Source: Abditibacterium sp.
GTDB taxonomy: Bacteria > Armatimonadota > Abditibacteriia > Abditibacteriales > Abditibacteriaceae
NCBI GenBank assembly: GCA_965246885.1
Contig: OZ251992.1
Location: 1,184,001-1,248,000, forward strand
Length of the DNA stretch: 64,000 nucleotides
Reading direction: 5' to 3'
The position numbers were made by a program, and so were the translations under genes. The notes below the pieces were generated by a model. That model was not told the DNA's origin, searched no databases, and saw only the letters and a program-made list of their open reading frames with translations. Below are positions 3,004-41,640 of this stretch, one piece after another. The stretch's first letter is position 1; every line of letters begins with the position of its first letter.

Positions 3004-3024
3004 CCTTTTATTTTGGCGGTGACG

Positions 3025-26192: not shown

Positions 26193-26777
26193 ATGAAATC
26201 GGAAGAAGTCGAGGCGGCGCTGAAAGATTCGGGCGCGCTATTGGAAGGGCACTTTTTACTCGCGTCGGGGCGGCACTCGCAGTTCTACGTGGAGAAGTTC
26301 CGCTTGTTGGAGCAGCCGCGCCTTACGTCGCGCTTGTGCGCCGAGATCGCGTGGCGCTTCCGGGGCGACGGCATCGAGTGCGTCGTCGGACCAGTGACGG
26401 GCGGCATCATCCTCGCGTTCGAGGTCGCGCGGCAAATGGGCATCCGCGCCGTCTACGCCGAGCGCGCCGAAGATGGGCGCGACTTCGCCTTTCGGCGCGG
26501 TTTTGAACTCAAGGCGGGCGAGCGGTGCCTCATCGTCGAAGACATCGTAACAACGGGCGGAAGCGCGCAAAAAGTCGTGGATTTGGTGCGAGCCAATGGC
26601 GGCGAAGCGGTGGGCGTCGGCCTGCTCGTTGACCGCTCGAACGGGCAGTTGCAAATCAACGCGCCGCGCGTGGAATCGCTGTTGACGATGCCAGTGCAAA
26701 GCTACGCGCCCGACGAAGTCCCCGATTGGCTGACCGAGCAATACGGCCCCGCCCGCAAACCCGGCACGACGCGTTAA
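26193..26777 (+). CDS. pyrE: Orotate phosphoribosyltransferase
   Basis: GHFLLASGRHS, PRPP motif LIVEDIVTTGGS. Confidence 0.95.
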   Translation: MKSEEVEAALKDSGALLEGHFLLASGRHSQFYVEKFRLLEQPRLTSRLCAEIAWRFRGDGIECVVGPVTGGIILAFEVARQMGIRAVYAERAEDGRDFAFRRGFELKAGERCLIVEDIVTTGGSAQKVVDLVRANGGEAVGVGLLVDRSNGQLQINAPRVESLLTMPVQSYAPDEVPDWLTEQYGPARKPGTTR

Positions 26778-26840
26778 GCGGGCAAAGCGCGCTTGCGGCA
26801 ACGGCTAAATCGGTTTAAAATGGAAGTCGAGGAAAACGCT

Positions 26841-27029
26841 ATGGAATCGCTTCAATTGCCCCCGCAACCCCCCGCCGAGCCGATAGACGACGCGACGCGC
26901 GCCGCGCTCGAAGAAGCGCGCGCCGAAGCCGCGCGCGGCGAGGTTTATACCCTTGACGAAGTGCGCGAAAGCATCAAACAACGGTCAATCGAATGGCGCA
27001 AAACCCAAGAAACCCTTCTCGCCGCGTAG
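26841..27029 (+). CDS. Putative type II antitoxin
   Basis: Small acidic ORF (ALEEARAEAARGEVYTLDEVRE) overlapping the ParE-like gene; GAGG RBS. Confidence 0.7.
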   Translation: MESLQLPPQPPAEPIDDATRAALEEARAEAARGEVYTLDEVRESIKQRSIEWRKTQETLLAA

Positions 27030-27334
27030 TCACTTTTTCCGCGACGGCGCGGCGCAGTCAGTTCGCTATCTATGACAGCACCGCCGCGCAGTGGGGTGAC
27101 GAGCAGGCCGAAGCCTATACCGAATTTTTGCTCAATACGATGCAAATGCTGGCCGATACCCCGGCGATGGCGCCGCGCGTTCCCAACGACCCCACCGCGC
27201 GCGTTTTTGTCGCGCGCTGGAAGAACGCGCGATACGGCCACCACATCTATTTCGATGAGACGCCGACCGGGATTTTGGTGCTGCGCATCTTGCATACCGC
27301 GCAAGACAGGCCAAGCGACCTGCGGGATAATTGA
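26993..27334 (+). CDS. parE: RelE/ParE family toxin
   Basis: FSATA..., QWGDEQAEAY, HHIYF, VLRILHTAQD. Confidence 0.8.
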   Translation: MAQNPRNPSRRVVTFSATARRSQFAIYDSTAAQWGDEQAEAYTEFLLNTMQMLADTPAMAPRVPNDPTARVFVARWKNARYGHHIYFDETPTGILVLRILHTAQDRPSDLRDN

Positions 27335-27363
27335 GTGGTGTGGAGAGCCGAAGGGAGTGAGAC

Positions 27364-27876
27364 CTAAAACCGGCGCTTTGGCCCGACGCCTAAATGGTGC
27401 TCGATCATGCGGCGCTCGAAGCGGAACAGAAACCACTCGAAGAACTGGTGCGCGCCCAGCTTGGTGTAAAGGTCTTGCGCCGATTTGTTCCAGTCCAAGC
27501 CCATGCACTCGACGCGCCAGCAACCCCGCGTGTAGGCTTGCTGGATGCACCACTTAATCAGCCCCGTCCCGATGCCGCGCCGCCGAAATTCGGGGCGCAC
27601 GTACAAGTCCTCAATGAACAGGCGCGGGCGCGCCATGAAGCTGGAGTAGGTCTCGAAGAACAAGCAGAACCCGGCGGGCGCTGCGCTTTCGGGAACAAAA
27701 GCCAGAAACGCCTCGAAGCGCGGGCGCTCGCCCCAGCCGTCCTCCAGAAAGCGCGCGCGGGCGGAAGTGTCGGGCGGGTGCAGATGCTCGAACAGCGCCA
27801 GTTCGTGCACGAGGTCGAGCAAAGCGGGCGCATCTTCGCGCTCGGCGCGGCGAATCGAGAAAGCGGAATCGGACAC
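27364..27876 (-). CDS. GNAT N-acetyltransferase (SSAT/diamine acetyltransferase-like)
   Basis: ELALFEH, YSSF, IEDLYVRPEFRRRGIG, LDWN..A..LY..LGA; GTG start 7 nt after TATAAT. Confidence 0.85.
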   Translation of the reverse strand: MSDSAFSIRRAEREDAPALLDLVHELALFEHLHPPDTSARARFLEDGWGERPRFEAFLAFVPESAAPAGFCLFFETYSSFMARPRLFIEDLYVRPEFRRRGIGTGLIKWCIQQAYTRGCWRVECMGLDWNKSAQDLYTKLGAHQFFEWFLFRFERRMIEHHLGVGPKRRF

Positions 27877-27928
27877 GAGAGCGATTATACGCGGCGAGTT
27901 TTTCCGGCGTGTTTCGGAGTAAACTCCA

Positions 27929-27950
27929 GCGCCACGACTCGTCGTGGCGC
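27929..27950. terminator. Hairpin just downstream of gmaS/glnT
   Basis: gcgccacgac-tc-gtcgtggcgc. Confidence 0.45.
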
Positions 27951-27959
27951 CCCAGTTCT

Positions 27960-29318
27960 TTAAAGCGCCAAGTAGCGGTTGAGTTCCCAGTTGGTGACGG
28001 CGCGGGAGTTCATGTCGTTGTATTCGTCCCACTCGGCGCGCTTAGTAGCGAGGTAGTTCCCCGCGTACTCCTCGCCCAGCGCGCGGCACAGCGCCTCATC
28101 CGCTTCGAGGGCGTCCAGCGCTTCGCCGAGGTTGGCGGGCAGCAGTTCGATGCCGCGCGCCTGCGCTTCTGACGGGGAGTGAAGGAACAGGTTCTCACTC
28201 CCGCGACTTTTCCCGGCGCTAAGTCCCCGCGCGACGCCGTCCAAGCCTGCCGCGAGGACGCCCGCCGCCGCGAGATAGGGGCTGGAACTGCCGTCGGCGG
28301 TGCGGTATTCCAACCTGCCGGGGGCCGGAACGCGGATCATGGTGGTGCGGTTGTTGCCGCCGTGCGCCACGAAAATCGGTGCCCACGTCGCGCCGCTCCG
28401 GGGGCTGCGCGCGCCAAAGCGTTTGTAGGAGTTGATGCTCGGCGCGGTCAGGGCGCACAACGCGCGGGCGTGGTGCATGACGCCGCCCATGAAGGCATAC
28501 GCGAGGCCGCTCAAGCCCATGTCGTCGTTCTTGTCGAGGAACAGGTTGTCGCGCGCCTCGGCGTCCCAGATGGAGCAGTGCATATGCGCGCCGCTTCCGG
28601 TCAGGTTCTCGAACGGCTTGGGCATGAACGTCGCGTGCAGGCCGCGCTCTTCGGCCAAGGCTTTGACCATGAACTTAAAGAAGATGACTTGGTCGGCGGT
28701 CTTGAGGGCGTCGTTGAAGTTCCAGTTGATCTCGAACTGCCCGTTGGCGTCCTCGTGGTCGTTCTGGTAGGCGCCGTAGCCAAGCTCGTTGAGGTAGGTG
28801 AGGAGCGTGGTGAGGAAATCGGCGTTGCGCAGAAGCGCCAGTTGGCCGTAGCAGGGCTTCGACAGCGTGTCGGACGGGTCGGAGATCTGCGGCGGGGCGC
28901 CGTTCTTGGCGGGCTTCTCCATCAGGAAGAACTCCGGTTCGATGCCCAGTTTAAAGCGGAAGCCCTGCTCCTGCGCCGCTTCAAGGTTGCGCGCCAAGAT
29001 GGAGCGCGGGCAGTGCGCCCAGTCATTCCCGTCGTGCTGCATATTGCCCGCAATCCACGCCATCCCCGGCTTCCAAGGCAAGGGAAAGACGGTCGAATCG
29101 GACTTGGGCACGCACGACAGGTCGGGGTCTTGCGGCCCTTGGCCCAGCCCGTCAACGGCGAAGCCCGCGAACCCCGCCGCGCCGTCCACCACGTCGGGCA
29201 GGCAGTGCGCGGGCACCAGTTTGGCGCGCGGGATGCCGTTGATGTCGGAGAAAGACATCAGAAAGTATTTGATTTGATGCGCGTCAAAGAGTTGTTGGGT
29301 TTGGGAAATGTTGTGCAT
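27960..29318 (-). CDS. glnT: Type III glutamate-ammonia ligase / gamma-glutamylmethylamide synthetase
   Basis: AKLVPA, GAAGFAGFA, YQNDHEDANGQFEIN, SGATWAP, NNRT; mgs operon context favours GmaS. Confidence 0.9.
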   Translation of the reverse strand: MHNISQTQQLFDAHQIKYFLMSFSDINGIPRAKLVPAHCLPDVVDGAAGFAGFAVDGLGQGPQDPDLSCVPKSDSTVFPLPWKPGMAWIAGNMQHDGNDWAHCPRSILARNLEAAQEQGFRFKLGIEPEFFLMEKPAKNGAPPQISDPSDTLSKPCYGQLALLRNADFLTTLLTYLNELGYGAYQNDHEDANGQFEINWNFNDALKTADQVIFFKFMVKALAEERGLHATFMPKPFENLTGSGAHMHCSIWDAEARDNLFLDKNDDMGLSGLAYAFMGGVMHHARALCALTAPSINSYKRFGARSPRSGATWAPIFVAHGGNNRTTMIRVPAPGRLEYRTADGSSSPYLAAAGVLAAGLDGVARGLSAGKSRGSENLFLHSPSEAQARGIELLPANLGEALDALEADEALCRALGEEYAGNYLATKRAEWDEYNDMNSRAVTNWELNRYLAL

Positions 29319-29324
29319 AATGGT

Positions 29325-29774
29325 TTAGTCCGTTGGGTATTTGAAGAAGCCGACGAGTTGTGTTTGGGCGAAGCCGACTTTCGGATAGAACGCCATCGCG
29401 GGCGCGTTGGCGCTGTCACACAGAACCTGAAAGCGCGCCGCGCCCTTGCCGACGGCCCAGCGTTCCAGTTCCGCTAACAGCAGGGGCATCAGTCCGCGCC
29501 CGCGAAAGGCGGGGAGGAGAATTACGTCCTCGATCCACACGGCGGGCGCGCCCATCGCGGTCGAGATGATGAGTTGCGCGCTGCACATCCCGGCGACTTC
29601 GCCCTCGACTTCCCCGACCAAGATAGTCCGCAAGCCGGGCGCTTGGAGCATCAATTCCAGTCCGCGCCGCGACTTGGCGGGGTCGAAGTGGAAGTCCGCT
29701 TCGATGGCGAAGAGGGTTTCGAGCAAGCCGAGCAGGGCGGGGATGTCGGCGGAAGTGGCGGCGCGGATGTGCAT
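29325..29774 (-). CDS. GNAT N-acetyltransferase
   Basis: LFAIEADF, ISTAMG, IEDV...FRGRG, N..A..FY..VGF. Confidence 0.88.
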   Translation of the reverse strand: MHIRAATSADIPALLGLLETLFAIEADFHFDPAKSRRGLELMLQAPGLRTILVGEVEGEVAGMCSAQLIISTAMGAPAVWIEDVILLPAFRGRGLMPLLLAELERWAVGKGAARFQVLCDSANAPAMAFYPKVGFAQTQLVGFFKYPTD

Positions 29775-29777
29775 GGG

Positions 29778-30980
29778 TTAGCGCAAGAACTTGGCGCGCT
29801 CGTATTTCCACTTCGAGGCGATGGGGCGCCCATCGGCAAAGCGGGCGAGGTCGAAGATGCCGGTTGGGAACGGCGAGGCGATGCCCTCGACGCGGCAGGC
29901 CATCTCCTCGCCCATCACCGTCGCCAGCTTGAAGCCGTGCCCGGAAAAGCCGACGGCGACATGGACGGTCTCGAAGGAGTCAATGATTGGCTGCCAGTCG
30001 GGGGTGGTTTCATACAGCCCGCAAAAGGCGCGCTCGACGCCACCTTTGTCGAGCGCGTCAATCCCCTCGAAACGCAGCGCGGCCTTGCCCTTAGCGTCGC
30101 GGATGGCGCGGGCGTCGGCTTCGGGGTCGTGCGAAATGGCGCAGTCGCGGGCGGGAACGGCTTGGAAATCCTGCAAATCGGCGGAGTCCGAGGAGCCAAC
30201 CCACATCCCGCTCCCGCCATCGGCGCGGAAATAGGCGAGGTTAATGAGGTCGGACACGACGGGAAAGCTCCCCCGGAAACTGGCGGGCCGCTCGACGACG
30301 ACGATCTGCGCGCGCATCGGGGTAACGGGCAACTCCAAGCCGAACAGTTCGCCCACGCCGCGCGACCAGTTGCCGGTGCAAAGCACGACTTGCGCGCAAC
30401 TCACGCTCGTTCCGTCGCCCAGCGCGACTTCCCAGCCTTCGCCGACAGCGCGCGCGCCGATAACGGGGGCGCCAAAGCGAAACGCTGCGCCGCTCTGTTT
30501 GGCGCCGTCGGTGAACGACCGGACAACGAGCGCGGGCGAAGCGTAGCCGCCGTGCTTCTCATAGGCGACGAGGGCGACATCTTCGGTGCGGACGGCGGGC
30601 GCGAGGGCTTTGAAGGCGGCGGGCGCCATTAACTCGACTTCGACGCCCAACTTCTGGTGCATCCCGATGTTGCGATGCAGCGTCGCCACGTCATCGGCGG
30701 CGACCAACACGGCGTAGCCGCACCCGTTCCAGCCCGCGTCGCCGCCGAAGAGTTCGCCGAAGCGTTGGAATCGCTTATTGGCTTCGAGCGCCATTTCGAC
30801 CAACTCCGGCACGCCGTAGTGCGCGCGGATGATGGCGCCGGACTTGGCGGTGGACTCCCCACCCGGCGCGGCGTTACGCTCGGCGACGACGACGCGGTAG
30901 CCGCGCCGCGAAAGCTCGAACGCCGCCGCGCACCCCATCAAGCCCGCGCCGACAACCAAGACATCGCAGGTTTCGGCCAT
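29778..30980 (-). CDS. FAD-dependent oxidoreductase (sarcosine oxidase beta/DAAO-like; candidate N-methylglutamate oxidase)
   Basis: VVGAGLMG, STAKSGAIIRAHY, TPDWQPII, GFSGHGFK. Confidence 0.88.
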   Translation of the reverse strand: MAETCDVLVVGAGLMGCAAAFELSRRGYRVVVAERNAAPGGESTAKSGAIIRAHYGVPELVEMALEANKRFQRFGELFGGDAGWNGCGYAVLVAADDVATLHRNIGMHQKLGVEVELMAPAAFKALAPAVRTEDVALVAYEKHGGYASPALVVRSFTDGAKQSGAAFRFGAPVIGARAVGEGWEVALGDGTSVSCAQVVLCTGNWSRGVGELFGLELPVTPMRAQIVVVERPASFRGSFPVVSDLINLAYFRADGGSGMWVGSSDSADLQDFQAVPARDCAISHDPEADARAIRDAKGKAALRFEGIDALDKGGVERAFCGLYETTPDWQPIIDSFETVHVAVGFSGHGFKLATVMGEEMACRVEGIASPFPTGIFDLARFADGRPIASKWKYERAKFLR

Positions 30981-31181
30981 TTAAAGCGCCCCCATAGCCA
31001 TCAGGCTCAGATTTTCAAGTGTGGAGAATCCCGCGTTTACCTCGCAGCGCGTCCGGCAGGACGCTTGGCGAAGCCGGATGCCGGGGATTTCATATCCCCG
31101 AAAGCGTTTCGCCAAGCGTCCTGCCGGACGCGCTGCGAGGCTTCGCTTGATGATGGTGATCTCCATTTAAAGCGCCCCCAT
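30977..31181. mobile_element. 186-bp palindrome-containing insert flanked by 19-bp direct repeats (MITE/REP-like)
   Basis: ccatttaaagcgcccccat at 30977-30995 and 31163-31181; internal 33-bp-arm inverted repeat 31040-31072/31108-31140; carries a 61-codon ORF 30981-31166. Confidence 0.6.
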
Positions 31182-32504
31182 CAGTTCGGCGACGTGCGAC
31201 GGGGCGAGCGGCGCTCTCATTCCGGCGAAGGGGATGCCCGTCACAAGCGCCGATTCGAGCGTGAGGGCGCGCAAGTCGTCGCGGTCGAGGTTGCCGACGT
31301 GCGATTTGCCGCAGGCGCGCGCCATGATTTGCATCTCCAACGTCATCGCGCGCAGGAAGTTCTCGACGCGCTCGGCGGCTTCTTGCACGTCTAAACGCTT
31401 CACCAGTTCGGGGTCTTGCGTGGCGACGCCGACCGGACAGCGTCCGGTGTGGCAGTGGTGGCAGGCTCCGGCGCGCGTGCCCATCGCCTCGTAATCTTCG
31501 AGGTAGAGCGGCGCGTTGCAGTTCAAGGCGATAATCGCCGCCGTCCCAATCGCCACCGCGTCGGCGCCCAGCGCCAAGGCTTTGGCGGCGTCCACGCCGG
31601 ATTTAATGCCGCCGCAAACGATGAGTTGCACTTCGCCGGTCAAGCCCAAGTCCTCCAAAGCGCGCGCCGCTTCGACGATGGCGGCGAGGGTGGGAATCCC
31701 GGTATGGTCGAGCAAAACGTCGGGCGACGCGGCGGTTCCGCCTTCCATGCCGTCCACGACCACGCAGTCCGCGCCCGCTTTGGCGGCGAGTTTCACGTCC
31801 TCATACACGCGCGCGGCGCCCAATTTCACGTAGATGGGCTTTTGCCAATCGGTCGCTTCGCGGAGTTCCTCTATCTTGATGGCGAGGTCTTCTGGCCCCA
31901 TCCAATCGGGATGGCGGCAGGGGGAGCGCTGGTCTACGCCGTCCGGCAGGTCGCGCATCCCGGCGATTTCGCTACTCACTTTCTGGCCGAGCAGCAAGCC
32001 GCCCGTTCCCGGTTTGGCGCCCTGCCCGACGACGACTTCGATGGCGTCGGCGCGCATCACATCGTGCGGGTTGAAGCCGTAGCGCGACGGCAAGCACTGA
32101 TACACGAGAGTCTGCGAATACTCGCGGTCGGTCGGGTGCATGCCGCCATCGCCGGTGCAAGTCGAGGTGCCAACGGCGGACGCGCCCAGTCCAAGGGCTT
32201 CTTTGGCGTTGCGACTGAGCGCGCCGTAGCTCATGCCCGCGATGGTGATGGGCGTTTTGAGGCGAAGCGGCTTTTTGGCGAAGCGCCCGCCCAAGATAAT
32301 ATCCGTCGAGCAGGTCTCGCGGTAGCCTTCGAGAGCTACGCGCGTCAGGCCCGCCGGGATAAAGGTCAGGTCTTCGAGCGTCGGGAGCGCGCGCGCGGTC
32401 GAGAAAGCGCGAATGCGGTAGCGGCCCAAACGCGCTTTCTCTTGAATGTCGTGAATGGAGCTTTCGTCCCAAATGCGGGAGGCTTGGCGGTCGTCAATAG
32501 GCAT
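31167..32504 (-). CDS. mgsC: FMN-binding glutamate synthase-family protein (NMG synthase subunit C / GlxD)
   Basis: AGMSYGALS, TGDGG, GQGAKPG.GG, RHPDW, CHHCHTGRCPVGVATQD. Confidence 0.9.
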   Translation of the reverse strand: MPIDDRQASRIWDESSIHDIQEKARLGRYRIRAFSTARALPTLEDLTFIPAGLTRVALEGYRETCSTDIILGGRFAKKPLRLKTPITIAGMSYGALSRNAKEALGLGASAVGTSTCTGDGGMHPTDREYSQTLVYQCLPSRYGFNPHDVMRADAIEVVVGQGAKPGTGGLLLGQKVSSEIAGMRDLPDGVDQRSPCRHPDWMGPEDLAIKIEELREATDWQKPIYVKLGAARVYEDVKLAAKAGADCVVVDGMEGGTAASPDVLLDHTGIPTLAAIVEAARALEDLGLTGEVQLIVCGGIKSGVDAAKALALGADAVAIGTAAIIALNCNAPLYLEDYEAMGTRAGACHHCHTGRCPVGVATQDPELVKRLDVQEAAERVENFLRAMTLEMQIMARACGKSHVGNLDRDDLRALTLESALVTGIPFAGMRAPLAPSHVAELMGAL

Positions 32505-32520
32505 GATGTGTGGTTGATTG

Positions 32521-32718
32521 GATGATTCACGGGATCGTTTCGCGGCGTCGCGGAACTCTTTCGGGAACTCGCGGAACTCTCCCCCGAACTCGCGGAACTC
32601 TTTCGCGGCGTCGCTGAACTCTCTCCCGAACTCACGGAACTCCTCCGCGAACTCACGGAATCGTTTCGCGGCGTCGCGGAACTCTTCCGCGAACTCGCGG
32701 AATCGTTCCGCGAACTCG
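32521..32718. repeat. Degenerate 21-bp tandem array (~9 units)
   Basis: Units such as gcggaactctttcgcggcgtc, gcggaactctcccccgaactc, gcggaatcgttccgcgaactc. Confidence 0.9.
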
Positions 32719-32732
32719 TTGTGTGCGTGGAT

Positions 32733-33539
32733 TTAGGCAAAAATCTCCACCGCGTCGCCGCGCCGCATGACGCCGGGCGTGAGGATGCGAGCGTAGACGC
32801 CGACGCCGCCTTCGTTGTGCTGGACGGCGGCGCGCAGGACGGCGGAGTCTTTGGGCAGGTCGTATTGCGGCAGCGTCGTCATCACGCAGCGCGGGCAGGG
32901 GCCGGTGATTTCCATTTCGACTTCGCCGATTTTCAAGGTTTTGCCGATCCAGTCGTTCTCGACGAAGCCGGGAGCGCCTTGCGTGTCCACGATGAAGTTC
33001 GGGCGAAAGCGGCGCGCTTCCAAACGCGAGCCGGGAATAATGCCCATCAAGGTTTGCAGCGTGGAAGTCGTGAGGAGGTGAATGGTGGACAAGTCGAAGA
33101 AGGTGCCCGCGAGCGTGTTTTCGTCCGTTACGGCGTCGGCGTGCGGCAAACCCTCGACATCGGCGGGCCAAAACTCCTCTATCACCGGCACTTCCGGCGC
33201 GACCGATTCCCACGACACGGGCTTGCCGAGAGATGCCGACAGCGCCGCTTCGAGGTGCGGGTCGTTCGAGAGCATCATCGCGCCATCGGGAAGCGTCAGC
33301 ATCACGGGCGGCAGTTCGCCGTTGCCCGACAGCGCGATGGGAGCCGCGAACGCCGCGCGGTGCGAGAACATCGTCGGCCACTTGCGCGGGTTCTTCGCGG
33401 TAACGAGCTTGCCTTCCTCATCTTTGAGCGCGAACGCGCGGTCGCCCAGCACGCCCTTCTCAGTCACGAAGGAAGCGTTGAGTTCTTCGCCCATCATGGA
33501 CTTGACGGGAAAGCGGTAAATGGAAGCGAGGGTGTTCAT
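32733..33539 (-). CDS. MOSC domain-containing protein
   Basis: IYRFPVKSMMGE, GDRAFAL, RRFRPNF, PCPRCVMTT. Confidence 0.92.
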   Translation of the reverse strand: MNTLASIYRFPVKSMMGEELNASFVTEKGVLGDRAFALKDEEGKLVTAKNPRKWPTMFSHRAAFAAPIALSGNGELPPVMLTLPDGAMMLSNDPHLEAALSASLGKPVSWESVAPEVPVIEEFWPADVEGLPHADAVTDENTLAGTFFDLSTIHLLTTSTLQTLMGIIPGSRLEARRFRPNFIVDTQGAPGFVENDWIGKTLKIGEVEMEITGPCPRCVMTTLPQYDLPKDSAVLRAAVQHNEGGVGVYARILTPGVMRRGDAVEIFA

Positions 33540-33557
33540 GGTGTGGTTGCGCGCGGC

Positions 33558-34904
33558 TCACATCGTAATCACAAACACTTTCTTGAGCGGCTCGTGAACT
33601 TCCCAAACGGACGGGGTGTTCATCGGGAAGGAGATGATGTCGCCGGGTTTGACGAGGACGCTGGTGCCGTCGTCTATGGTGATGGTGGCGCGGCCTTCGA
33701 GGACATGGAAGGTCTCGTTGCCAAAGAACAGCCAGCGAAAGGTCGCGGGCTGCACCCACCAGAGGCCGGTGAGGTAAACCGGGTCGTTCTTCTCGTTCTT
33801 TTTGAGCCAGTGGACTTTGGGAACGGGGTCGCCTTGGAGCAGGTCGTGCGCTTCGATGGGCATCGGCTCCCAAAGCGTGGTTTCGGTGGTGGAATAGTAG
33901 ATGTTTCCCATGACGGGTTCCTTTTTGTGGTTGATTTCGGGCAGGGCGCGCAGACCGGGAACGGTGGAGCGGGGCTTTTTCTCGACTTCGCGGATGCGGG
34001 TATCGAGGAAATCCACGAGCGCGTCGTAGAAGTTGGCCCAGCCCTTGTATTCGCGCGTCGGGCGCGGCACGCCCTTGACGTTGCTGGCGAAGCGTTTGAG
34101 CCGGACGGGGTCGGCGATGACTTCCGCGAGCGGGGTTAAATAGGTGTGGATGGTGAAGAGAATCCCCTCGGTGCGCGGCAGGCGGACGAACATCTGGCGT
34201 TCGACGCGCATGTGCAAGCGGTCTCCGGCGTTCTCGTGGGTGATGCCGCGCTTGGCGGGCGCCCATTCGTGGTAGGTCGGCGGAGCGAGGTTGAGGCGGT
34301 CGGTCGCGCTGATTGTCCAATTCAAGCGCCCCGTCGGGCGGTGCGGCTTGAGGCGCTGCATCATCGAAAGCGCGGGGTGGCCAATGCGCTCGATAAAGCC
34401 GGGAGTCGGCTCGTGGATGCGCAGGAATCCCTCGCCGATTTTGTCGTCCAAGCACCAACTCGCCGCAAAGCACAAGTGCCCCGCCGCCATCGTGATGCTC
34501 TCGTCGCCGTTCATTAGGATTAAGTCCTCCTGAACGTGGCGCCCCAGCCAATCGAGCGGCGCAAGTGGAAGAGTCGAAGCGTCGCCGAGGGTGAAGGTTT
34601 CGCGCGTGCCGCGCAGGTGGTTGGCGAATGTCCACTCGGCCCCATTGCGTTCAAGGGCGAAGTGGGTGGGGTAGTGCGCGACCAAGTCGGGCAGGACGGT
34701 CTCGATGCAATCCCACGCGAGCGCGAGCGCATCAGGCGGGCACTGGAAGTAGTAGCGGTGGTCGGTCGCCAAGATTTCGTCCTTGAGCGCCATCTCTGCT
34801 GCGTAATGCTCGATGTCCACCTCGATGATTGGCCCACTTTGTGGGCGGGCGTTCATCGGCATGTCGTATTCGTCGTGATCGAAGGGGAAGTAAGGGAGGG
34901 ACAT
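33558..34904 (-). CDS. DUF3445 heme-dependent oxidative N-demethylase alpha-like protein fused to a cupin (DUF861/EutQ-like)
   Basis: VQEDLILM, CFAASW..DKIG..FLRIHEP, R.NW, RVERQ, LFTIHTY; C-terminal GDP, TGLW, ETFHVLEG, PGDIISFP, W.V...LKK cupin. Confidence 0.85.
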   Translation of the reverse strand: MSLPYFPFDHDEYDMPMNARPQSGPIIEVDIEHYAAEMALKDEILATDHRYYFQCPPDALALAWDCIETVLPDLVAHYPTHFALERNGAEWTFANHLRGTRETFTLGDASTLPLAPLDWLGRHVQEDLILMNGDESITMAAGHLCFAASWCLDDKIGEGFLRIHEPTPGFIERIGHPALSMMQRLKPHRPTGRLNWTISATDRLNLAPPTYHEWAPAKRGITHENAGDRLHMRVERQMFVRLPRTEGILFTIHTYLTPLAEVIADPVRLKRFASNVKGVPRPTREYKGWANFYDALVDFLDTRIREVEKKPRSTVPGLRALPEINHKKEPVMGNIYYSTTETTLWEPMPIEAHDLLQGDPVPKVHWLKKNEKNDPVYLTGLWWVQPATFRWLFFGNETFHVLEGRATITIDDGTSVLVKPGDIISFPMNTPSVWEVHEPLKKVFVITM

Positions 34905-34907
34905 GTT

Positions 34908-36383
34908 TTAAATCGCTTCCGCCAAGTCGTCGTCCAGCACGGGTGCGGGGATGTAAGCGGGCGCGGCGGCTTTGGCTTTGTCCTGCGCGCGGCGGATGAG
35001 GTAGAAGGGCACGAAGGTGAACATGATGAGAAAGCCCATCACGAACGGTTGGGTGATGGCCCACCCGCCCCATTGAAAGCCGCCGACAAAGAGCAAGACG
35101 GTGTTGAAGACCGCGAAGAGCGCGGCGAGGGGCACGAAGAAGGCGGGCAACTTGAAGGGGCGGTCGGCGTGCGCGGCGTCGCGGCGCAGCAGGATGTAAG
35201 CGATGGGCAGAATCATCCACACCAGCAGGTAGCCAATCGTCGAGGCGCCCACCATATTGATGACGTTGTCTTTGAAGACGACCAGCAGAAGCAGGGTGAT
35301 GAAGCAATCCCAGAACATGCCCCGGTCGGGCACGCCGAACGGGTTGAGGTGGCCGAACTGCTTGATCATCGTGCCGTCTTTGCTCATCTCGTAGACCGTG
35401 CGCGACGAGCCGATGATGGCCGTTTGCGCGCCCAGCAAAAGCGCGGCGATGAGCATCACGACGACAACCGTCGCGCCACCTTTGCCGAAAATGGCCGTCG
35501 CTGCCGGAAGAAACGCGACCTGCGGGTCTTTAGTCAGCGTGTCCACACCGACGATGCCCAGCAACACGAACGGCACGACGCCATACGCGAACATCCCGAC
35601 GAGCGAAGCGGCAATCATCGCTTTGGGCGCGTCGCGGTGCGGGTTTTTTAGTTCCGCCACAACGGTGGACGCCGACTCAAAAGCGTAGCTTGACCAGACG
35701 GCGATGAACGCCCACTTAATCATCAACAGCCACGACGCGCCCGAACTCCACGAGCCTTTGAGCGGGATGAACGGCAGGATGTTGGCCCACGAGAACAAGT
35801 GCGCGCGGTAGATGGGCGAGAGGGCGATCACCAGAAGCGGCCCCATTGCGAAGACGGCCATTGCCACGCTCATCCACACGCCCGGCTTGAGGCCGAAATA
35901 GTTGGCGCCATAAAGCGCGAGTGCCAAAACGCCCGCGACGATGGCCACGTTCGCGTTGGGCATGACGGTGCCCTTGAGGTAGCCCGCGATGAGCACGAGG
36001 TTGACCGGGATGACGGGAATCCAGCCGAGCCAATAGCCCCACGCGGCGATGGCGCCGGGAAAAGGCGACTTCTTTTTGAACGCTTCATGCGCGTAGACCG
36101 CGCCGCCGCCGGACTTGTGCGGGAACATCCCGGACATTTCGCAAATCATCAGGCAGTTGGCCACGCCAATTAGGGCAGTGAGAATCCAGATGAAGACCGA
36201 AGCGGCGCCAAGGTCGGCGGCCATCGGGCCGAGCGAAACGGCGACCAAGATGGAGCCACCCATCGAAATGACGGCGGCGCTTTTCCACGACACATGACGC
36301 TCCAGTTCGTGCGAGTCGGCGGTGTGTTCCTTGCCGGAGATGCCAACGGTGGGCATCGAGTTTGGGTTTGTTTGTGCGGCCAT
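34908..36383 (-). CDS. APC family amino acid/amine permease
   Basis: ~12 TM; PHKSGG..VYA, ELKNPHRDAPKA, SRTVY, RPFK. Confidence 0.9.
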   Translation of the reverse strand: MAAQTNPNSMPTVGISGKEHTADSHELERHVSWKSAAVISMGGSILVAVSLGPMAADLGAASVFIWILTALIGVANCLMICEMSGMFPHKSGGGAVYAHEAFKKKSPFPGAIAAWGYWLGWIPVIPVNLVLIAGYLKGTVMPNANVAIVAGVLALALYGANYFGLKPGVWMSVAMAVFAMGPLLVIALSPIYRAHLFSWANILPFIPLKGSWSSGASWLLMIKWAFIAVWSSYAFESASTVVAELKNPHRDAPKAMIAASLVGMFAYGVVPFVLLGIVGVDTLTKDPQVAFLPAATAIFGKGGATVVVVMLIAALLLGAQTAIIGSSRTVYEMSKDGTMIKQFGHLNPFGVPDRGMFWDCFITLLLLVVFKDNVINMVGASTIGYLLVWMILPIAYILLRRDAAHADRPFKLPAFFVPLAALFAVFNTVLLFVGGFQWGGWAITQPFVMGFLIMFTFVPFYLIRRAQDKAKAAAPAYIPAPVLDDDLAEAI

Positions 36384-36428
36384 AGGGATTGTTCCTTTGG
36401 GATTGGGGTGGTGCGCGTCGTAACGGGG

Positions 36429-37145
36429 TTAAAGCGCCTGCTTCCAAATCTCTTTTTCTTTGGTGTTGAAGTTGTAAAGTCGTCGGGCCGACTCGACTTT
36501 GCGGAAGTCGTCGGGCCGGAAATCCACGCCCGCTTCGAGGAAGGTTTCGGAAAGAAACTCGACATCGCGGGCGTTTAGCTCCGCCATTTGCGCGTCGGCG
36601 CCCAGCGATTTGGCTTGGCCGCGAATGTAAATCTTGCCTTCGTAAAGCGAGTCGCCCAACGCTTCGTCGGCGTCGCCGCCGATGATGAGGGCGCCCTTTT
36701 GCATCATAAAGCACGACATCACGCCGACATCGCCGGTAACGAGGAGGGTGCCGCCCTTCATGGCGGCGGCGGTGCGCGCTCCCGCGTCGCCATGCACGAC
36801 AACCAAACCGCCGCGCATGGTGGCGCCCGTCGCGCTGCCCGAACTGCCGTGAAGGATGACCTTGCCGCCCATCAGGTTTTCGGCCAGTCCCCAACCGGCG
36901 CCGCCCATAATTTCGACTTCGACGCCGTCGCAAAGGCCAGCGCAGTAGTAGCCGACCGGCCCTTCGATGCGGATGCGAAGCGGCTTGACAAGGCCCACGC
37001 CGATGTTATGGCGCGAGTCGGGATTGAACAAGACGACGGACAGCGTTTCGCCTAAGACGGAAGCGCTCGCGTGTTCGCGCAGAAAAGTGTTGATCTCGCG
37101 CGTCGAGTGCGCCGAGCAATCGAGGGTGGTTAATCCAGCGCCCAT
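36429..37145 (-). CDS. mgsB: GXGXG-repeat protein (NMG synthase subunit B / GlxC)
   Basis: REIN, HNIGVG, GYYCAG, GWGLAENLMGG, ALGDSLYEG; ATG 37145 overlaps upstream gene. Confidence 0.88.
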   Translation of the reverse strand: MGAGLTTLDCSAHSTREINTFLREHASASVLGETLSVVLFNPDSRHNIGVGLVKPLRIRIEGPVGYYCAGLCDGVEVEIMGGAGWGLAENLMGGKVILHGSSGSATGATMRGGLVVVHGDAGARTAAAMKGGTLLVTGDVGVMSCFMMQKGALIIGGDADEALGDSLYEGKIYIRGQAKSLGADAQMAELNARDVEFLSETFLEAGVDFRPDDFRKVESARRLYNFNTKEKEIWKQAL

Positions 37146-38032
37146 GTTTTGGTCTCCTGTGGTTTGATTTCGCGGATGCGCGCATCCATGCCGCACGCAT
37201 GATACAGCGACTGCGGCTCCGACCCAAGCGTGACGCCCGCGTCGGTTTCGACGTATAGCAAGGGCTTGGTCGCAAGCGGGTCGCGCGTCACGCCGAGGGC
37301 GTTTTCGGTGGCGACGATGAACGAGAACGAGCCGTCGAGTTGGGTTTTGGCGGTTTCGAGCGCCTCGAACAAAGTTGCGCCACTCTCCATCAGGTCGCCC
37401 AGAAAGACGCCGATGATTTCGGAGTCGTTGTGTGAAGCGAACGAAAAGCCGCGCGCCTCGAAGCGTTGCCGAAGTTTGTAGTAGTTCGTGATATGCCCGT
37501 TGTGCGTGACGGCGATGTCGGAGAACGGGCGCCCCCAAAACGGCTGGGCGTGCGCGGGGTCAATGCGGCTTTCGGTCGCCAACCGCAAGTGAGCGATGCC
37601 ATGCGTGCCCTTTAAATCCGCGATTTGCGGCGCCAATTCTTCGATGCGCCCGACGGCCTTGTAGACGCTCATGCGCTCGCCCAAGCCGGACACCGTCGCG
37701 CCGGGAAAGGCATCTTCGAGCAAGCGCACAAGCGCGAGGTCGTCAAGAGAATTTGGCGGGTCGTCGCCCCTAAGGGGCGCGTCGAAACCGCCGGTTTGCG
37801 CGTGGAAAGATTGGAGACGTCCGCCCGAAGCGGCGCTCAGTTCGTCAAAAGAAGGCGCGCCAATCGAAGCGGGCAACGCCATTTGCAAGTGCGAGGCGCC
37901 AATCGCCCCGAAAACCGCGACGCCCGCCGAATCGGCGCCGCGATGTTGAAGAGTGCGCGCCATTTCCAAAAGCGTTGCGCCGATGGAAAAGTCGCTCGTG
38001 TCGCGTCGAAGGACGCCAGCAATGCCGCACAT
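37130..38032 (-). CDS. mgsA: Class II glutamine amidotransferase (NMG synthase subunit A / GlxB)
   Basis: MCGIAG, HRGADSAG, HLRLATES, HNG, NDSE. Confidence 0.88.
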   Translation of the reverse strand: MCGIAGVLRRDTSDFSIGATLLEMARTLQHRGADSAGVAVFGAIGASHLQMALPASIGAPSFDELSAASGGRLQSFHAQTGGFDAPLRGDDPPNSLDDLALVRLLEDAFPGATVSGLGERMSVYKAVGRIEELAPQIADLKGTHGIAHLRLATESRIDPAHAQPFWGRPFSDIAVTHNGHITNYYKLRQRFEARGFSFASHNDSEIIGVFLGDLMESGATLFEALETAKTQLDGSFSFIVATENALGVTRDPLATKPLLYVETDAGVTLGSEPQSLYHACGMDARIREIKPQETKTWALD

Positions 38033-38159
38033 AGGGATAGGAAAAACGGTGGCCTAAAAACCAACGCCCTCCATTTTCCCCCCGCCATGTCAACCCAAAA
38101 TGAACGCCGCGAAAACATTGCCGCGACCTTGAATGAACGCCATGTTTCGCCGCAATCGG

Positions 38160-38195
38160 CAAACGGCCCGCTTTCTTTGGAAAGCGGGCCGTTTG
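38160..38195. terminator. GC-rich hairpin (16-bp arms), terminator-like
   Basis: caaacggcccgctttc-tttg-gaaagcgggccgtttg; similar to hairpin at 45952-45990. Confidence 0.6.
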
Positions 38196-38265
38196 TTTCG
38201 GTTGGGTTATGCGTGAAAAAGCCCGGTGTTACGTAGGGCTGTTTCGGCGGGTCGGGGGCTTTTGG

Positions 38266-38973
38266 CTACTCATATCCGGGGTAGAGAAGAGTCACACATT
38301 CTGGGCAGATGAATCGTCTATCCCAAGTCGAGCCGTCGTCAGGGCGGCGAGTATGCAGTGGCGTTTTTCTGCGGCCTGTGACGTGGCTCCAGAACACCAA
38401 GCCCTTTTCTTCGCTTATGGCTGAGCCGATGCTTTGCGAGTAGCGCTCGCTGCTTTGTGCTCGCCGCATATTTGACCACCCCCTTGGCTTATCTACGGTA
38501 TTGAGGCGAAAGAAGTCGCCACAAAAGCGGCAACGTCCCAAGCCCACGCCTTCGAGAAGGGACAACCGCAACCGCTCGATGGGTTGATACACCGGGCTGG
38601 AAAGAACTTCGGCGCAACTAAAGGGAGACTGCCGGATTTCGATAAGCCCCACGCCTAAGTGCCGCGCCACTTCCACTTCTTCAAACGAGAAACCTTGAGG
38701 TCGCACATCCGCCAGATAAACCAAGTTGGTCATAATTCGGTAGCCCAAGGCTTGACCAACCGTTGCCGCGAATTGGGTTGCGCCTCGTTTGACTTCGATG
38801 GAAAGGGTTTCCACTTCGCCACTCAAGTCGCCTCCCGCGTCACGCACGCCCAAAACATCGACGCGGCCAAAGGCGATGCCGCGATTGATGAACACATCGA
38901 AACATCTAAAGTGCGACTTTGCCCATTCGCCAACAGGCGCATAAAGTTCGGCTTCTAAATCAGTGCTTGCCAT
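38266..38973 (-). CDS. PD-(D/E)XK nuclease-like protein with C-terminal Zn ribbon
   Basis: E..L, RVDVLG...IEVK, GQALGY (QxxxY), VYLA, GVGLI; CRFC...CPEC; lower GC than flanks. Confidence 0.7.
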   Translation of the reverse strand: MASTDLEAELYAPVGEWAKSHFRCFDVFINRGIAFGRVDVLGVRDAGGDLSGEVETLSIEVKRGATQFAATVGQALGYRIMTNLVYLADVRPQGFSFEEVEVARHLGVGLIEIRQSPFSCAEVLSSPVYQPIERLRLSLLEGVGLGRCRFCGDFFRLNTVDKPRGWSNMRRAQSSERYSQSIGSAISEEKGLVFWSHVTGRRKTPLHTRRPDDGSTWDRRFICPECVTLLYPGYE

Positions 38974-39048
38974 GTTGACCAGTTTGCTTGAGTCGCCGCC
39001 GCCACGCCCGAAACAGCCAGTCGCGCCGCGCGCCGTCCGATGTGCAGC

Positions 39049-41640
39049 CTAAACCAACTCCCCTGCCCGTTCCAACGCCTCGTCAATTTTACCCGCGTCC
39101 TTGCCGCCTGCTTGGGCGAAGTCGGGGCGTCCGCCGCCGTTGCCGCCGGTGATTTGCGCCAACTGCTTGGCCAAATTCCCGGCGTGTGCGCCCTTGGCGA
39201 CGGAGGACTTGGTGGCGTTGACGATCCACACGATTTTGCCGTCGTCCTCGCTGACTAAGGCGACCATGCCGTCCAACTTTTGCGCGATTTGGCTCGACAG
39301 TTCGCGTAGAGATTCGCCCGATACGCCCTCTGGCGCGCGGCCCGCGACGAAGCGAAAACCCTTGACTTCGACGGCGCCCGCCAGCAACGTTTCGAGCGCG
39401 CCGCTTCCCAACTGGCGCTGCACGCCCGCCAACTGTCGCTCCAACTCTTTAACTCGCGCTGCGAGTTTACTCGCCGCTTGCGTCACCTGGTCGGGCTTGG
39501 CGTTCAGTTCGCGCGCGACTTCGCGCAATGCCGCCGCCGTCTGGCGCTCGTGTTCCAAGGCCGCGAAACCCGTGAGGGCTTCGATGCGGCGCACGTTCGC
39601 TGCGACGCCGCCTTCGCTCACGATGCGAAACGTGCCCGCCGCCGAAGTCGTGGGGATGTGCGTGCCGCCGCACAGTTCCAAGCTGAAGTCGCCCATCCGC
39701 ACCGTCCGCACAACGTCCCCGTACTTCTCGCCAAAAAGCGCCATCGCGCCCATCGCGCGCGCTTCGGCGAGCGTCTTTTCGGCGATTTCGACGGGGAGGG
39801 ACTTCAAGATTTCCTCGTTGACCGTCGCTTCGACGGAAGTGCGCTCGGCCTCAGTCAACGGCCCGAAATGCACGAAGTCAAAGCGCAGCGTATCGGCGGT
39901 AACGAGCGAACCTTTCTGCTGAACGTGGTCGCCCAAGTGCTGACGTAGCGCTGCGTGGAGCAAGTGCGTCGCGGAGTGCGCCCGTTCGACGGCGCGGCGG
40001 CGGTGGACATCCACGCGCGCGGACACGGTTTGCCCTTCGTTCAACTGCCCGGAGACAAGTTCGACGGTGTGAACCCACGCCTTGCCGTCCTTTTGAGTGT
40101 CCACTACGCGGGCCAGCCCTTCGCCCGCCCCAGCGAGGAGTTCGCCCGTGTCGCCGACTTGCCCGCCACTCTCGCCATAAAAGGGCGAGCGGTCGAGAAC
40201 CACCTTGTCGCCTTGAACCGCCAAAATGCGCGCGTCGCTTTCGAGAACGCCGTAGCCGACGAACTCCGTCGTCAACTCGCCGAAGCTGCGCTTGACGTAA
40301 TCCGGCCTCACGTCGGGCGCGGACTCACGCTCGTGCTGCTCGCGCGCTTCTATAAAGGAGGCGTCGTCGTAGCTCAGGCCCTGCGCTTCAAGTAAATCCG
40401 CCGTCAGTTCGGGCGGGAAGCCCTTGGACTGATACAAGTCGAAGACCTCGCGGCCCGAAATCTGGCGCTCGCCCTTGCGTTTGGCGTCCTCGATCATGTC
40501 TTCGATGCGGCCCATGCCCGAATCGAGGGTCTGCTCGAACTTCTCTTCCTCAGAGCGGATGAAGTTCGTGATGATGGCGCCGCGCTCCAGCAGTTCGGGA
40601 TAAACCTCGCCATAGGAGCGTTGGATGGTCGGGATGAGGCGGTGCAAAAACGGCTGCGTGATTCCCAAAGCGCGGCCCGACAAGTAGGCGCGGCGGATGA
40701 AGCGGCGCAGCATATAGTCGCGCCCGTTGGCGCCGGGGATGACGCCATCGCCAATCAGAAACGCCGCCGCCCGCACATGGTCGGCGATGACGCGCGCCGG
40801 TTTGGAGGTCGGGTCGTCGGGGTGCAGTTCGGGCTTGGACAGGGAAAACGGCAGTTCGCCGCCCGACTTCGCGGCGAAAATCGCGTTGACGAGCGGCGCG
40901 AACAGGTCGGTTTGGTGGATGGTGTCCACGCCTTGCAAAATGGCGGCGGTGCGCTCCAAGCCCATGCCGGTATCAATGCCGGGAGCGGGCAGATTGACCA
41001 GTTCGCCCGATTCCAGTTGGTTGTATTGCTGGAAGACGAGGTTCCAAATCTCGCCGTAGCGGTCGCCGTCGCCGCCGGGCCTGTCCATTTCCGGGTCGCC
41101 CGTGTCGTATTTCGCGCCCCGGTCGAAGAAGATTTCGCTGTCCGGCCCACACGGGCCGCTTTTGCCGACCGGCCCCCACCAGTTGTCCTTTTTGCCAAAA
41201 CGATAAATGCGCTCATCCAACAACCCCACATCGCGGCGCCAGATGTCGGGCGCCTCGGTGTCTTCATGGTAGACGCTGACCCACAGGACGGCGGGGTCAA
41301 TGCCAAGGGTCTGGGTGAGGAACTCCCAGCCCCACACTATGGCTTCGCGCTTGAAGTAGTCGCCAAAGGAGAAGTTGCCGAGCATCTCGAAGAACGAGGC
41401 GTGCCGCCACGTCACGCCGACTTGCTCGATGTCATCGGCGCGGCAGGACTTCTGGCACGAAGCGAGGCGCGTCGCGGGCGGCTTCTCCTCGCCCTTGAAA
41501 TACGGCACGAGCGGCTGCATCCCCGCGGAGGTAAGGAGAGTCGTCGGGTCAGTGGGAATCAGCGACCCCGAAGGGATGATGAGCGAGCCTTTGGATTGAA
41601 AGAACGAAAGATAGCGCGAGCGAAGGTCGTGTCCGGTCAT
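39049..41640 (-). CDS. alaS: Alanine--tRNA ligase
   Basis: DPTTLLTSAGM, HASFFEMLGNFSFGDYFK, IDTGMGLER, HSATHLLHAAL, ELCGGTH, GGGRPDFAQAGG. Confidence 0.98.
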   Translation of the reverse strand: MTGHDLRSRYLSFFQSKGSLIIPSGSLIPTDPTTLLTSAGMQPLVPYFKGEEKPPATRLASCQKSCRADDIEQVGVTWRHASFFEMLGNFSFGDYFKREAIVWGWEFLTQTLGIDPAVLWVSVYHEDTEAPDIWRRDVGLLDERIYRFGKKDNWWGPVGKSGPCGPDSEIFFDRGAKYDTGDPEMDRPGGDGDRYGEIWNLVFQQYNQLESGELVNLPAPGIDTGMGLERTAAILQGVDTIHQTDLFAPLVNAIFAAKSGGELPFSLSKPELHPDDPTSKPARVIADHVRAAAFLIGDGVIPGANGRDYMLRRFIRRAYLSGRALGITQPFLHRLIPTIQRSYGEVYPELLERGAIITNFIRSEEEKFEQTLDSGMGRIEDMIEDAKRKGERQISGREVFDLYQSKGFPPELTADLLEAQGLSYDDASFIEAREQHERESAPDVRPDYVKRSFGELTTEFVGYGVLESDARILAVQGDKVVLDRSPFYGESGGQVGDTGELLAGAGEGLARVVDTQKDGKAWVHTVELVSGQLNEGQTVSARVDVHRRRAVERAHSATHLLHAALRQHLGDHVQQKGSLVTADTLRFDFVHFGPLTEAERTSVEATVNEEILKSLPVEIAEKTLAEARAMGAMALFGEKYGDVVRTVRMGDFSLELCGGTHIPTTSAAGTFRIVSEGGVAANVRRIEALTGFAALEHERQTAAALREVARELNAKPDQVTQAASKLAARVKELERQLAGVQRQLGSGALETLLAGAVEVKGFRFVAGRAPEGVSGESLRELSSQIAQKLDGMVALVSEDDGKIVWIVNATKSSVAKGAHAGNLAKQLAQITGGNGGGRPDFAQAGGKDAGKIDEALERAGELV

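Follow-up and report, generated by a model that had tools for sequence, protein, structure and literature searches.

The N-methylglutamate (NMG) pathway has been surveyed mainly in Proteobacteria (PMC5023228), where it comprises GmaS, MgsABC and the four-subunit MgdABCD, as in the Rhizobium leguminosarum plasmid cluster taken here for comparison (L098), and it has also been reported in Mycobacterium (PMC5023230, section 3.3.1). Two accounts of the chemistry of the Mgs step exist (PMC10781810). In genome surveys, the use of methylated amines is sought by way of mgdABCD and dmmABC (e.g. PMC5520151), the latter represented by the DmmABC(D)/HODM systems of Pseudomonas mendocina (5LTE/5LTH), Ruegeria pomeroyi and Methylocella silvestris. 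The subject of the present analysis is a nine-gene operon in a stretch of 64,000 nucleotides (G000:C1:1184001-1248000, hereafter the window) from Abditibacterium sp., of the phylum Armatimonadota, whose genome (G000) is 92.7% complete and consists of two contigs. This operon is a variant of the known NMG pathway, and the variant itself appears to be new: in the literature searched, which covered few subscription papers and no supplements, no description was found of the operon, of its DUF3445-cupin fusion or of a one-subunit NMG enzyme, and among the matches listed for the methylamine and N-methylglutamate literature neither Abditibacter nor Capsulimonas was mentioned.

The interest of the locus lies mainly in a swap. 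At one position of the operon, between mgsB and mgsC, the fusion and dmmABC alternate among relatives, and the two were never found together in the 17 genomes of the phylum that carry mgsC. This is the most telling point missed by a first-pass annotation of the window, which had been made from the letters alone. The nine genes are listed below.

37130..38032, minus strand: mgsA, N-methylglutamate synthase subunit of the class II glutamine amidotransferase type (300 aa, with MCG at the N-terminus; GATase_6/7)
36429..37145, minus strand: mgsB, GXGXG subunit (238 aa; PF01493)
34908..36383, minus strand: APC amine permease, first gene of the cassette (491 aa; AA_permease_2)
33558..34904, minus strand: DUF3445/HODM-alpha haem domain with EutQ-like cupin, second gene of the cassette (PF11927, 208 bits; Cupin_3)
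32733..33539, minus strand: mARC/YcbX-like MOSC molybdoprotein, third gene of the cassette (268 aa; MOSC_N and MOSC)
31167..32504, minus strand: mgsC, FMN glutamate-synthase-like subunit (445 aa; PF01645, 345 bits)
29778..30980, minus strand: one-subunit FAD enzyme with sarcosine oxidase/DMGDH fold (400 aa; DAO)
29325..29774, minus strand: GNAT acetyltransferase, accessory (149 aa; PF00583)
27960..29318, minus strand: gmaS, gamma-glutamylmethylamide synthetase (452 aa; TIGR03105)

The operon and its N-methylglutamate core

The nine open reading frames (ORFs) are intact and all lie on the minus strand between positions 38032 and 27960, in the order mgsA-mgsB-APC permease-DUF3445/cupin-MOSC-mgsC-FAD protein-GNAT-gmaS, with the domains named in the first-pass annotation. 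They are real genes and their order is conserved in relatives, being complete in genomes G010 and G020 and in the metagenome locus L018, and matching as far as the contig end in G024; the closest locus (87% identity) is that of a genome of the same genus (Abditibacterium sp.). The true start of mgsB is the ATG at 37145, with a 16-nt overlap with mgsA. Spacing inside the operon ranges from -16 to 45 nt, with two exceptions, namely a 228-nt gap between the MOSC gene and mgsC, occupied by a 21-bp tandem array, and a 186-nt gap between mgsC and the FAD (DAO) gene, occupied by a dispersed hairpin. When the 83-nt gap to a second GNAT gene is counted, seven of the nine gaps fall between -16 and 83 nt.

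The gmaS product scores 558 bits against TIGR03105 (cut-off 469.6), and its best PDB matches are 7CQL and 9QUR. In RhGmaS, the diagnostic set consists of Asp177, Glu186, Arg312, Tyr147, Gln175, Asn188 and Lys30', and a Trp and an Ala replace the flap Glu and the Asp50' of glutamine synthetase (GS), respectively (PMC7948447). The window protein carries the RhGmaS residues at K33, A54, Y157, Q185, D187, E189, E196, N198, W312 and R324, whereas the two ordinary glutamine synthetases encoded elsewhere in the host genome both retain the flap Glu. Judged by family membership and residues, the ligase is a true GmaS and not an ordinary GS, and because it retains every GmaS-diagnostic residue, the operon is an NMG operon, as had been proposed. 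As a whole, 12 of the 27 genomes of the host's family have matches above the TIGR03105 cut-off, but many of these matches belong to a second type of ligase, which occurs with creatininase and ureohydrolase genes and without mgs.

All three mgs genes are present and linked to gmaS in the window. Identities to the R. leguminosarum cluster are 47% for GmaS, 32% for MgsA, 42% for MgsB and 61% for MgsC. The GmaS catalytic residues and an APC permease in the region are common to both, but the window lacks MgdB/SoxD and MgdC/SoxA, as well as purU, dmmD, tmm and tdm, its FAD enzyme is 23% identical to MgdA, and its mgsABC is split by a cassette. In a survey of 301 genomes of the phylum, mgsC (E ≤ 1e-100) was found in 17, seven from the host's family and ten from family f31; these genomes are kin, and their counts, which are not independent, describe a pattern and not a statistical test.

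The core layer of the operon is mgsA-mgsB-mgsC-flavoprotein-gmaS. Matches to the FAD protein were found in 25 of the 301 genomes at E ≤ 1e-25 and in 16 at E < 1e-120, the value that follows being 7.5e-51. These 16 genomes all carry mgsC too, with the FAD gene directly after it, and in the seventeenth mgsC genome (G024) the contig breaks inside mgsC. SoxD, for which the Rhizobium positive control was detected, was found in none of the 17 mgsC genomes, nor was full SoxA, the matches being to its GcvT domain only; Rhizobium SoxB and SoxD gave no tblastn match in the host genome at E ≤ 1e-3. The four-subunit MgdABCD of the canonical NMG pathway was not found in the host.

At the structural level, the model of the FAD protein (pLDDT 90) has a fold like that of SoxB, DMGDH and MSOX (TM about 0.8-0.85), at 20-28% identity. 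It differs from them at the MSOX positions Lys265, Arg49 and Cys315, aligned with W260, A49 and G321, respectively; Cys315 is the covalent FAD site of MSOX. In an account of Lys265 and Arg49, oxygen activation is assigned to Lys265 (PMC5459902). The carboxylate anchors Arg52, Tyr55 and Lys348 of MSOX (PMC12582975) have equivalents, R52, Y55 and K351, that are invariant in 41 sequences. Given the strict co-occurrence with mgsC, the absent Sox/Mgd subunits and these substrate-anchor residues, the FAD enzyme is likely to be a one-subunit N-methylglutamate dehydrogenase or oxidase. The first-pass annotation had called it an oxidase; that label is unsure because the equivalent of the oxygen-activating Lys265 is absent.

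A plasmid search with the FAD protein returned 13 records at E ≤ 1e-30, three of which were examined. On the plasmid of Ca. Mycobacterium methanotrophicum the order is glnT-mgsA-mgsB-mgsC-FAD, and on those of Cupriavidus and Paraburkholderia the FAD gene, together with ETF beta/alpha, HutD and ETF-QO, adjoins glnT-mgsABC. A Streptomyces plasmid, found with mgsC, has a more MSOX-like flavoprotein in the FAD position, followed by a mycothiol formaldehyde dehydrogenase. No SoxD was found on these four records (plasmid sequences only; chromosomes were not searched). The window protein is 30-33% identical to its plasmid homologues and has the motifs RxHY, TPDWxP and GFSGHGFK in common with them. 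The actinobacterial glnT-mgsABC-oxidoreductase loci (M. smegmatis msmeg_6260-6264 and Ca. M. methanotrophicum) likewise have one FAD enzyme beside gmaS-mgsABC; in M. smegmatis, msmeg_6259-6264 are induced by GlnR and nitrogen starvation (PMC4222082, PMC4617892). With homologues beside gmaS-mgsABC in both Mycobacterium and Burkholderiales, the single-FAD arrangement is not unique to the host. This weakens the weight that the first-pass annotation gave to the one flavoprotein, which is a partner of gmaS-mgsABC across phyla. What the window adds to the actinobacterial and Burkholderiales loci is the APC/DUF3445-cupin/MOSC cassette, absent there, whereas the Burkholderiales FAD module adds ETF and ETF-QO, both lacking in the Armatimonadota hosts. 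No assay of the actinobacterial or Burkholderiales FAD enzymes was found in the literature searched.

In Cupriavidus and Paraburkholderia (L219:15954-23271 and L221:10003-17254), the FAD-ETF alpha/beta-HutD-ETF-QO operon stands opposite LysR and N-formylglutamate deformylase genes, beside glnT-mgsABC. This layout suggests an ETF-linked NMG dehydrogenase, and the operon perhaps includes an N-formylglutamate route.

The slot between mgsB and mgsC

Concerning the slot between mgsB and mgsC, three states were found among the 17 mgsC genomes. It is empty, with contiguous mgsABC, in five (G007, G012, G022, G197 and G284); it holds a Cupin_3 gene with dmmA, dmmB and dmmC in six (G125, G141, G165, G173, G181 and G290); and it holds the DUF3445-cupin fusion in the remaining six (G000, G010, G020, G024, G091 and G266). 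Because five of the 17 have contiguous mgsABC, the three intervening genes are an insertion, in agreement with the earlier reading. DmmA_C was found above cut-off in six of the 53 genomes tested (all 48 with PF11927 and five others), which are exactly the canonical six, and full-length DmmB in the same six of the 17 mgsC genomes. A Cupin_3 domain accompanies the haem enzyme in both forms, either as a separate gene or fused; a part in the oxidation of methylated amines has been proposed for EutQ cupins (PMC5023230, section 3.3.1).

At thresholds of 48% identity and 40% length, the APC permease is present in all 12 filled slots, i.e. wherever the haem enzyme is present, and in none of the five empty ones, and MOSC in 10 of the 12 and again in none of the five. 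MOSC had been tied to the lone DUF3445 protein; this link fails, as MOSC also occurs in five of the six canonical Dmm clusters, in five of which APC is directly followed by MOSC, and it is absent from the fusion loci G266, L021 and L023. On the same grounds, MOSC as a substitute for DmmB was rejected. Three of the canonical six add Tdm and a gene of acyl-CoA-dehydrogenase fold, and two add a Mo-bisPGD oxidoreductase. Since relatives carry dmmABC and Tdm in this slot, a methylated amine larger than methylamine is the likely input, as had been suggested.

In all three Tdm clusters, the acyl-CoA-dehydrogenase-fold gene directly precedes Tdm (L189:4897-6513, L190:13203-14657 and L192:12696-14129). 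In these genomes without ETF and Tmm, it is a candidate flavoenzyme related to trimethylamine (TMA) or trimethylamine N-oxide (TMAO). DUF1989 matches were considered as Tdm and rejected, being part of a urea carboxylase locus.

The fusion is a single frame of 448 aa, with the haem domain at residues ~1-310, a flexible linker at 316-338 and a DUF861/EutQ-like cupin at ~340-448, in which no His metal ligands were seen. It matches HODM alpha (5LTE) with a phmmer E of 6e-51, and its AF2 model (pLDDT 91.3) has an rmsd of 1.5 Å to 5LTH in Foldseek. Residues W150, H164, R193, N195, W196, R233, E235 and Q237 are retained in 10/10 fusions and 12/12 DmmC proteins; H164, E235, W150 and R193 align with H194, E266, W180 and R224 of 5LTE. 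This His is the haem ligand and this Glu binds the amine, as reportedly set out by Ortmayer in 2016. By its residues, the haem/amine site of the fusion is intact, and the frame is likewise unbroken in two families, with identities of 58-87%. The nearest relatives of the fusion are DUF3445 proteins of 44-62% identity, some named from Chloroflexota and some cupin-fused.

The fusion thus resembles DmmABC(D)/HODM in its PF11927 fold, its haem/amine-site residues, its cupin companion and its slot, which is that of dmmABC in kin. It differs in its C-terminal cupin, in the absence of DmmA and DmmB from all six fusion genomes and of DmmD from G000 (the only genome tested), and in its position outside the DmmC clade. 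In a maximum-likelihood (ML) tree of 70 rows, obtained by a quick search with two short rows skipped, DmmC (12 rows) forms one clade with SH-aLRT support of 100 and the fusions fall outside; however, an approximately unbiased (AU) test on 43 of the 70 rows, 27 having been dropped as distant, long-branched or near-duplicate, did not reject a shared clade in which fusions and DmmC are sisters (p = 0.36). A separate origin of the fusion, which the ML tree had seemed to favour, was accordingly dropped as a claim.

None of dmmA, dmmB, dmmD, tmm, tdm, soxD and soxA was found in the 92.7% complete host genome, which bears out, genome-wide, the earlier remark that DUF3445 stands there without reductase and tetrahydrofolate-binding subunits. 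The nearest approaches were a sub-cut-off DmmA match (E 6e-4) in an unrelated-looking frame, a weak partial match of the DmmB PDR/VanB reductase to a PyrK-like protein, and one GCV_T locus elsewhere, 22% identical to DmmD.

Two artefacts were considered and rejected: a separate cupin gene joined by sequencing error, since the frame is open in relatives, and an apparent split of the fusion in G266, which is an assembly gap. The linker also contains an in-frame ATG (Met332), accompanied by an AAGGA sequence resembling a ribosome-binding site (33909-33925, minus strand), and Met332 is retained as MGN in most close homologues; free cupin might be produced in addition to the fusion. A further locus (L027:722-1303 and 1629-3110) has no mgs nearby; there, a MOSC-domain gene is divergently paired with a Chloroflexota-like DUF3445-cupin fusion whose cupin is degenerate.

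Proposed route and rival explanations

On this evidence, drawn from sequences and their models, the operon probably takes nitrogen from dimethylamine (DMA) and methylamine, with APC for import, the fusion in place of DmmABC and the FAD enzyme in place of MgdABCD. The role of the core alone (GmaS, MgsABC and FAD enzyme) can be held with considerable confidence, and DMA as substrate of the fusion with a rather smaller measure of it. The fusion likely replaces the dimethylamine monooxygenase, because its haem/amine site is intact and it alternates with dmmABC in the same slot.

In the proposed sequence, the APC permease would import the amine, a role suggested by its co-occurrence with the haem enzyme; the fusion would convert DMA, with O2 and two electrons, to methylamine and formaldehyde, the electrons being borrowed from a general cellular reductase; GmaS, so assigned by its family, would join methylamine to glutamate with ATP to give gamma-glutamylmethylamide; MgsABC would, by homology, turn this into NMG; and the FAD enzyme would release glutamate and formaldehyde, with either O2 or quinone as acceptor, both being kept because the hosts lack ETF. 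MOSC would reduce an N-oxygenated amine, imported or arising as a by-product, and so regenerate an amine that the cell can use, and formaldehyde would enter housekeeping routes, for which the host has two FolD-family genes and Zn dehydrogenases. The gene content reads as nitrogen scavenging and not methylotrophy.

As for the accessory proteins of this route, the best NCBIfam match of APC is the TMAO permease NF053774 (225.7 bits, below the cut-off of 690), it is ~30% identical to the Rhizobium permease, and an APC permease is annotated beside the canonical Rhizobium cluster; an APC transporter is not unusual, against what had been supposed. A paralogue (53%) lies next to a fused EutB-EutC ethanolamine ammonia-lyase and converges on the NMG operon in G266 (L194:689-4489). 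With the TMAO family below cut-off, APC in Rhizobium and an ethanolamine-linked paralogue, small-amine permease is the safe label. MOSC shares MOSC_N+MOSC and the FRPN and CxRC motifs with mARC/YcbX N-reductases, the motifs aligning to human mARC1 (including the Mo-ligand Cys), but it differs from them in lacking a fused ferredoxin (Fer2), in having no electron carrier found (b5 was not searched) and in its place in an amine-catabolic operon. In the host, moaA is present (the only Moco-synthesis gene checked), as is a CysJ-like FAD/NAD protein without flavodoxin domain. MOSC likely salvages an N-oxygenated amine.

Several observations weigh against the DMA route. The fusion is 38% identical to DmmC and differs from it at 20 diagnostic columns, and dmmABC is the reported working unit of Dmm (PMC5520151). 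An electron donor is missing, as no DmmB or flavodoxin was found in the host, and one weak Fer2 match (soluble 2Fe-2S ferredoxin) only. ETF was found in none of the 17 mgsC genomes, and the Lys265 equivalent is lacking too, so that neither feature points to an acceptor for the FAD enzyme. M. smegmatis, whose five-gene core matches by description, did not grow on methylamine (PMC4222082), and McTaggart 2015 placed the Mycobacterium Mgd in distant mgdA-D genes (PMC5023230, section 3.3.1). DmmA is absent from 42 of the 48 PF11927-positive genomes of the phylum, and none of the 48 partnerless DUF3445 loci, many of them short, had a match to gmaS, mgsC, dmmA or dmmB nearby, whereas one divergent MOSC, one DAO-type, one amidotransferase and one Mo enzyme gene were found there. 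The ancestral job of the lone DUF3445 clade may accordingly not be DMA. We infer that a partnerless DUF3445 protein was recruited into the DMA slot.

Among the rival explanations, it is unlikely, though worth weighing, that the cassette serves TMAO or another N-oxide imported by APC, with MOSC making TMA and the fusion demethylating it twice, or with the haem using the N-oxide as oxygen donor, without a reductase. Such a redox-neutral step would account for the missing DmmB, and the TMAO permease as best APC family, the Tdm genes in three of the six canonical clusters, the APC-MOSC succession in five and the Mo-bisPGD oxidoreductase in two all fit. MOSC proteins do reduce many N-oxygenated compounds, N-oxides among them, but mARC1 is very poor on TMAO (PMC10637980), and the FMO/Tmm family was found in none of the 17 mgsC genomes, so that the first-pass idea of N-oxide (TMAO) reduction by MOSC is weakened. 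Moreover, APC is far under the family cut-off and no closer than ~30% to the Rhizobium permease, with its 53% paralogue beside the ethanolamine enzyme, three fusion loci have no MOSC, and DMA from TMAO would still require an oxidative step. The chances are slimmer that the operon scavenges monomethylamine only, the fusion being an amine or gas binder or a detoxifier carried with the permease. The lack of DmmA, DmmB and a clear electron carrier in the host, the five-gene core standing alone in 5/17 genomes and the partnerless DUF3445 genes lying mostly away from amine genes speak for it; yet the fusion sits where kin hold cupin and dmmABC, never with both in one genome, every active-site position is retained, and the frame has stayed intact across two families. 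In addition, a stand-alone P450 in the host suggests that its haem enzymes borrow reductases, the host's reductase-like proteins being the CysJ-like and PyrK-like ones.

Little probability is given to a different small amine or N-alkyl amide (e.g. ethylamine, or the product of a creatininase-family enzyme) undergoing the same glutamylation chemistry. RhGmaS accepts ethylamine, propylamine and hydroxylamine (PMC7948447), M. smegmatis did not use methylamine, as said above (PMC4222082), and at several fusion loci there are also a gene of the creatininase family and a second TIGR03105 ligase whose pocket residues are changed. However, the window GmaS has Q185 and N198, like RhGmaS, where the second ligase has S and D, the window operon has no creatininase, and in kin the slot is occupied by canonical enzymes for DMA and TMAO. 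Equally doubtful is a version of the DMA route in which the fusion acts as a self-sufficient haem N-demethylase, without a reductase of its own, and is driven inside the operon by electrons or H2O2 from the NMG flavoenzyme, or by an amine N-oxide as oxygen donor. The two electrons that this flavoenzyme would yield per methylamine match one-to-one the two needed per DMA, and such an enzyme would, if real, give a mechanism for partnerless DUF3445 proteins (42/48 in the phylum sample) and a reason why the flavoenzyme needs no ETF.

Should the DMA route with a borrowed reductase be correct, the dmmABC and mgdABCD steps have simpler substitutes that surveys looking for those genes miss, namely a haem demethylase without partners and an NMG oxidiser of one subunit, the latter present in three phyla in this analysis, and Armatimonadota would join the organisms that recycle methylamine nitrogen. 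As a natural experiment, the swap between dmmABC and fusion points towards a substrate of the orphan DUF3445 branch, and the conserved cluster offers a direct test of the role of lone haem enzymes.

Regulation, repeats and neighbouring loci

The other features in and around the operon are the following.

38195..38209, minus strand: upstream motif T-n-A-Y-N6-GAAAC, possible regulator site, ~175 nt before mgsA
32530..32718, no strand: imperfect tandem array of 21/63 bp, in the gap between MOSC and mgsC (TRF score 256; three places in the genome)
31030..31150, no strand: long near-perfect hairpin in the gap between mgsC and the flavoprotein gene (-97.5 kcal/mol, z -11.3)
27364..27876, minus strand: second GNAT (PF00583), 83 nt downstream of gmaS

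The upstream motif occurs in seven of ten upstream regions of the family, against a shuffle mean of 0.08, a count to be read with the motif having been defined after viewing the sequences, among kin. As a global nitrogen box it was not supported, not being enriched before glnA, gltB or two of the three amt genes. In the f31 loci L187-L196, L023 and L026, a conserved leader motif, GGCRAYGACGTC, lies upstream of mgsA and is followed by a T-rich hairpin end; this leader, not seen in the host's family, resembles an ANTAR antitermination element. Over positions 26500-39200, Rfam gave eight matches, all under gathering scores, and a promoter and terminator scan gave no excess over shuffles.

The hairpin has ~26 related places in the genome and no room in the 5-nt gap of G010; it is a REP/MITE-like repeat. 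The tandem array at 32530-32718 has no part in the pathway. Arrays of 21-bp period were also found at 17210-17477, with 12.8 perfect copies, and at 63828-63940. The first GNAT, present in four of the 17 mgsC genomes (G000, G007, G010 and G020), is accessory, and the second follows gmaS in G010, G012, G007 and L018, its linkage being confined to close relatives. Just ahead of the operon, a 235-aa ORF (38266-38973) has no Pfam or NCBIfam match and is not conserved at this place in relatives; on the other side are a ParE-family toxin gene (26993-27334) and a 517-aa ATPase-like ORF with weak AAA matches only (24026-25579).

The second TIGR03105 ligase type, which has Ser in the position of Gln175 and Asp in that of Asn188, nearly always comes after a gene of the creatininase family. 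In the f1 loci L131, L132, L134, L135, L136 and L139, it occurs without mgs but with ureohydrolase, gamma-glutamyltransferase, RidA, isochorismatase, MBL hydrolase and an NMT1-type ABC transporter, and in the f31 loci L187 and L189-L194 the creatininase and second-ligase pair is inserted into the NMG operon. These genes are possibly a separate module for amines derived from amides or guanidines. Elsewhere in the host genome, a locus at G000:C1:3348000-3362000 (L251) holds urea carboxylase, allophanate hydrolase, two DUF1989 genes and an NMT1 ABC transporter beside the stand-alone P450, and is further evidence of organic-nitrogen scavenging in the host.

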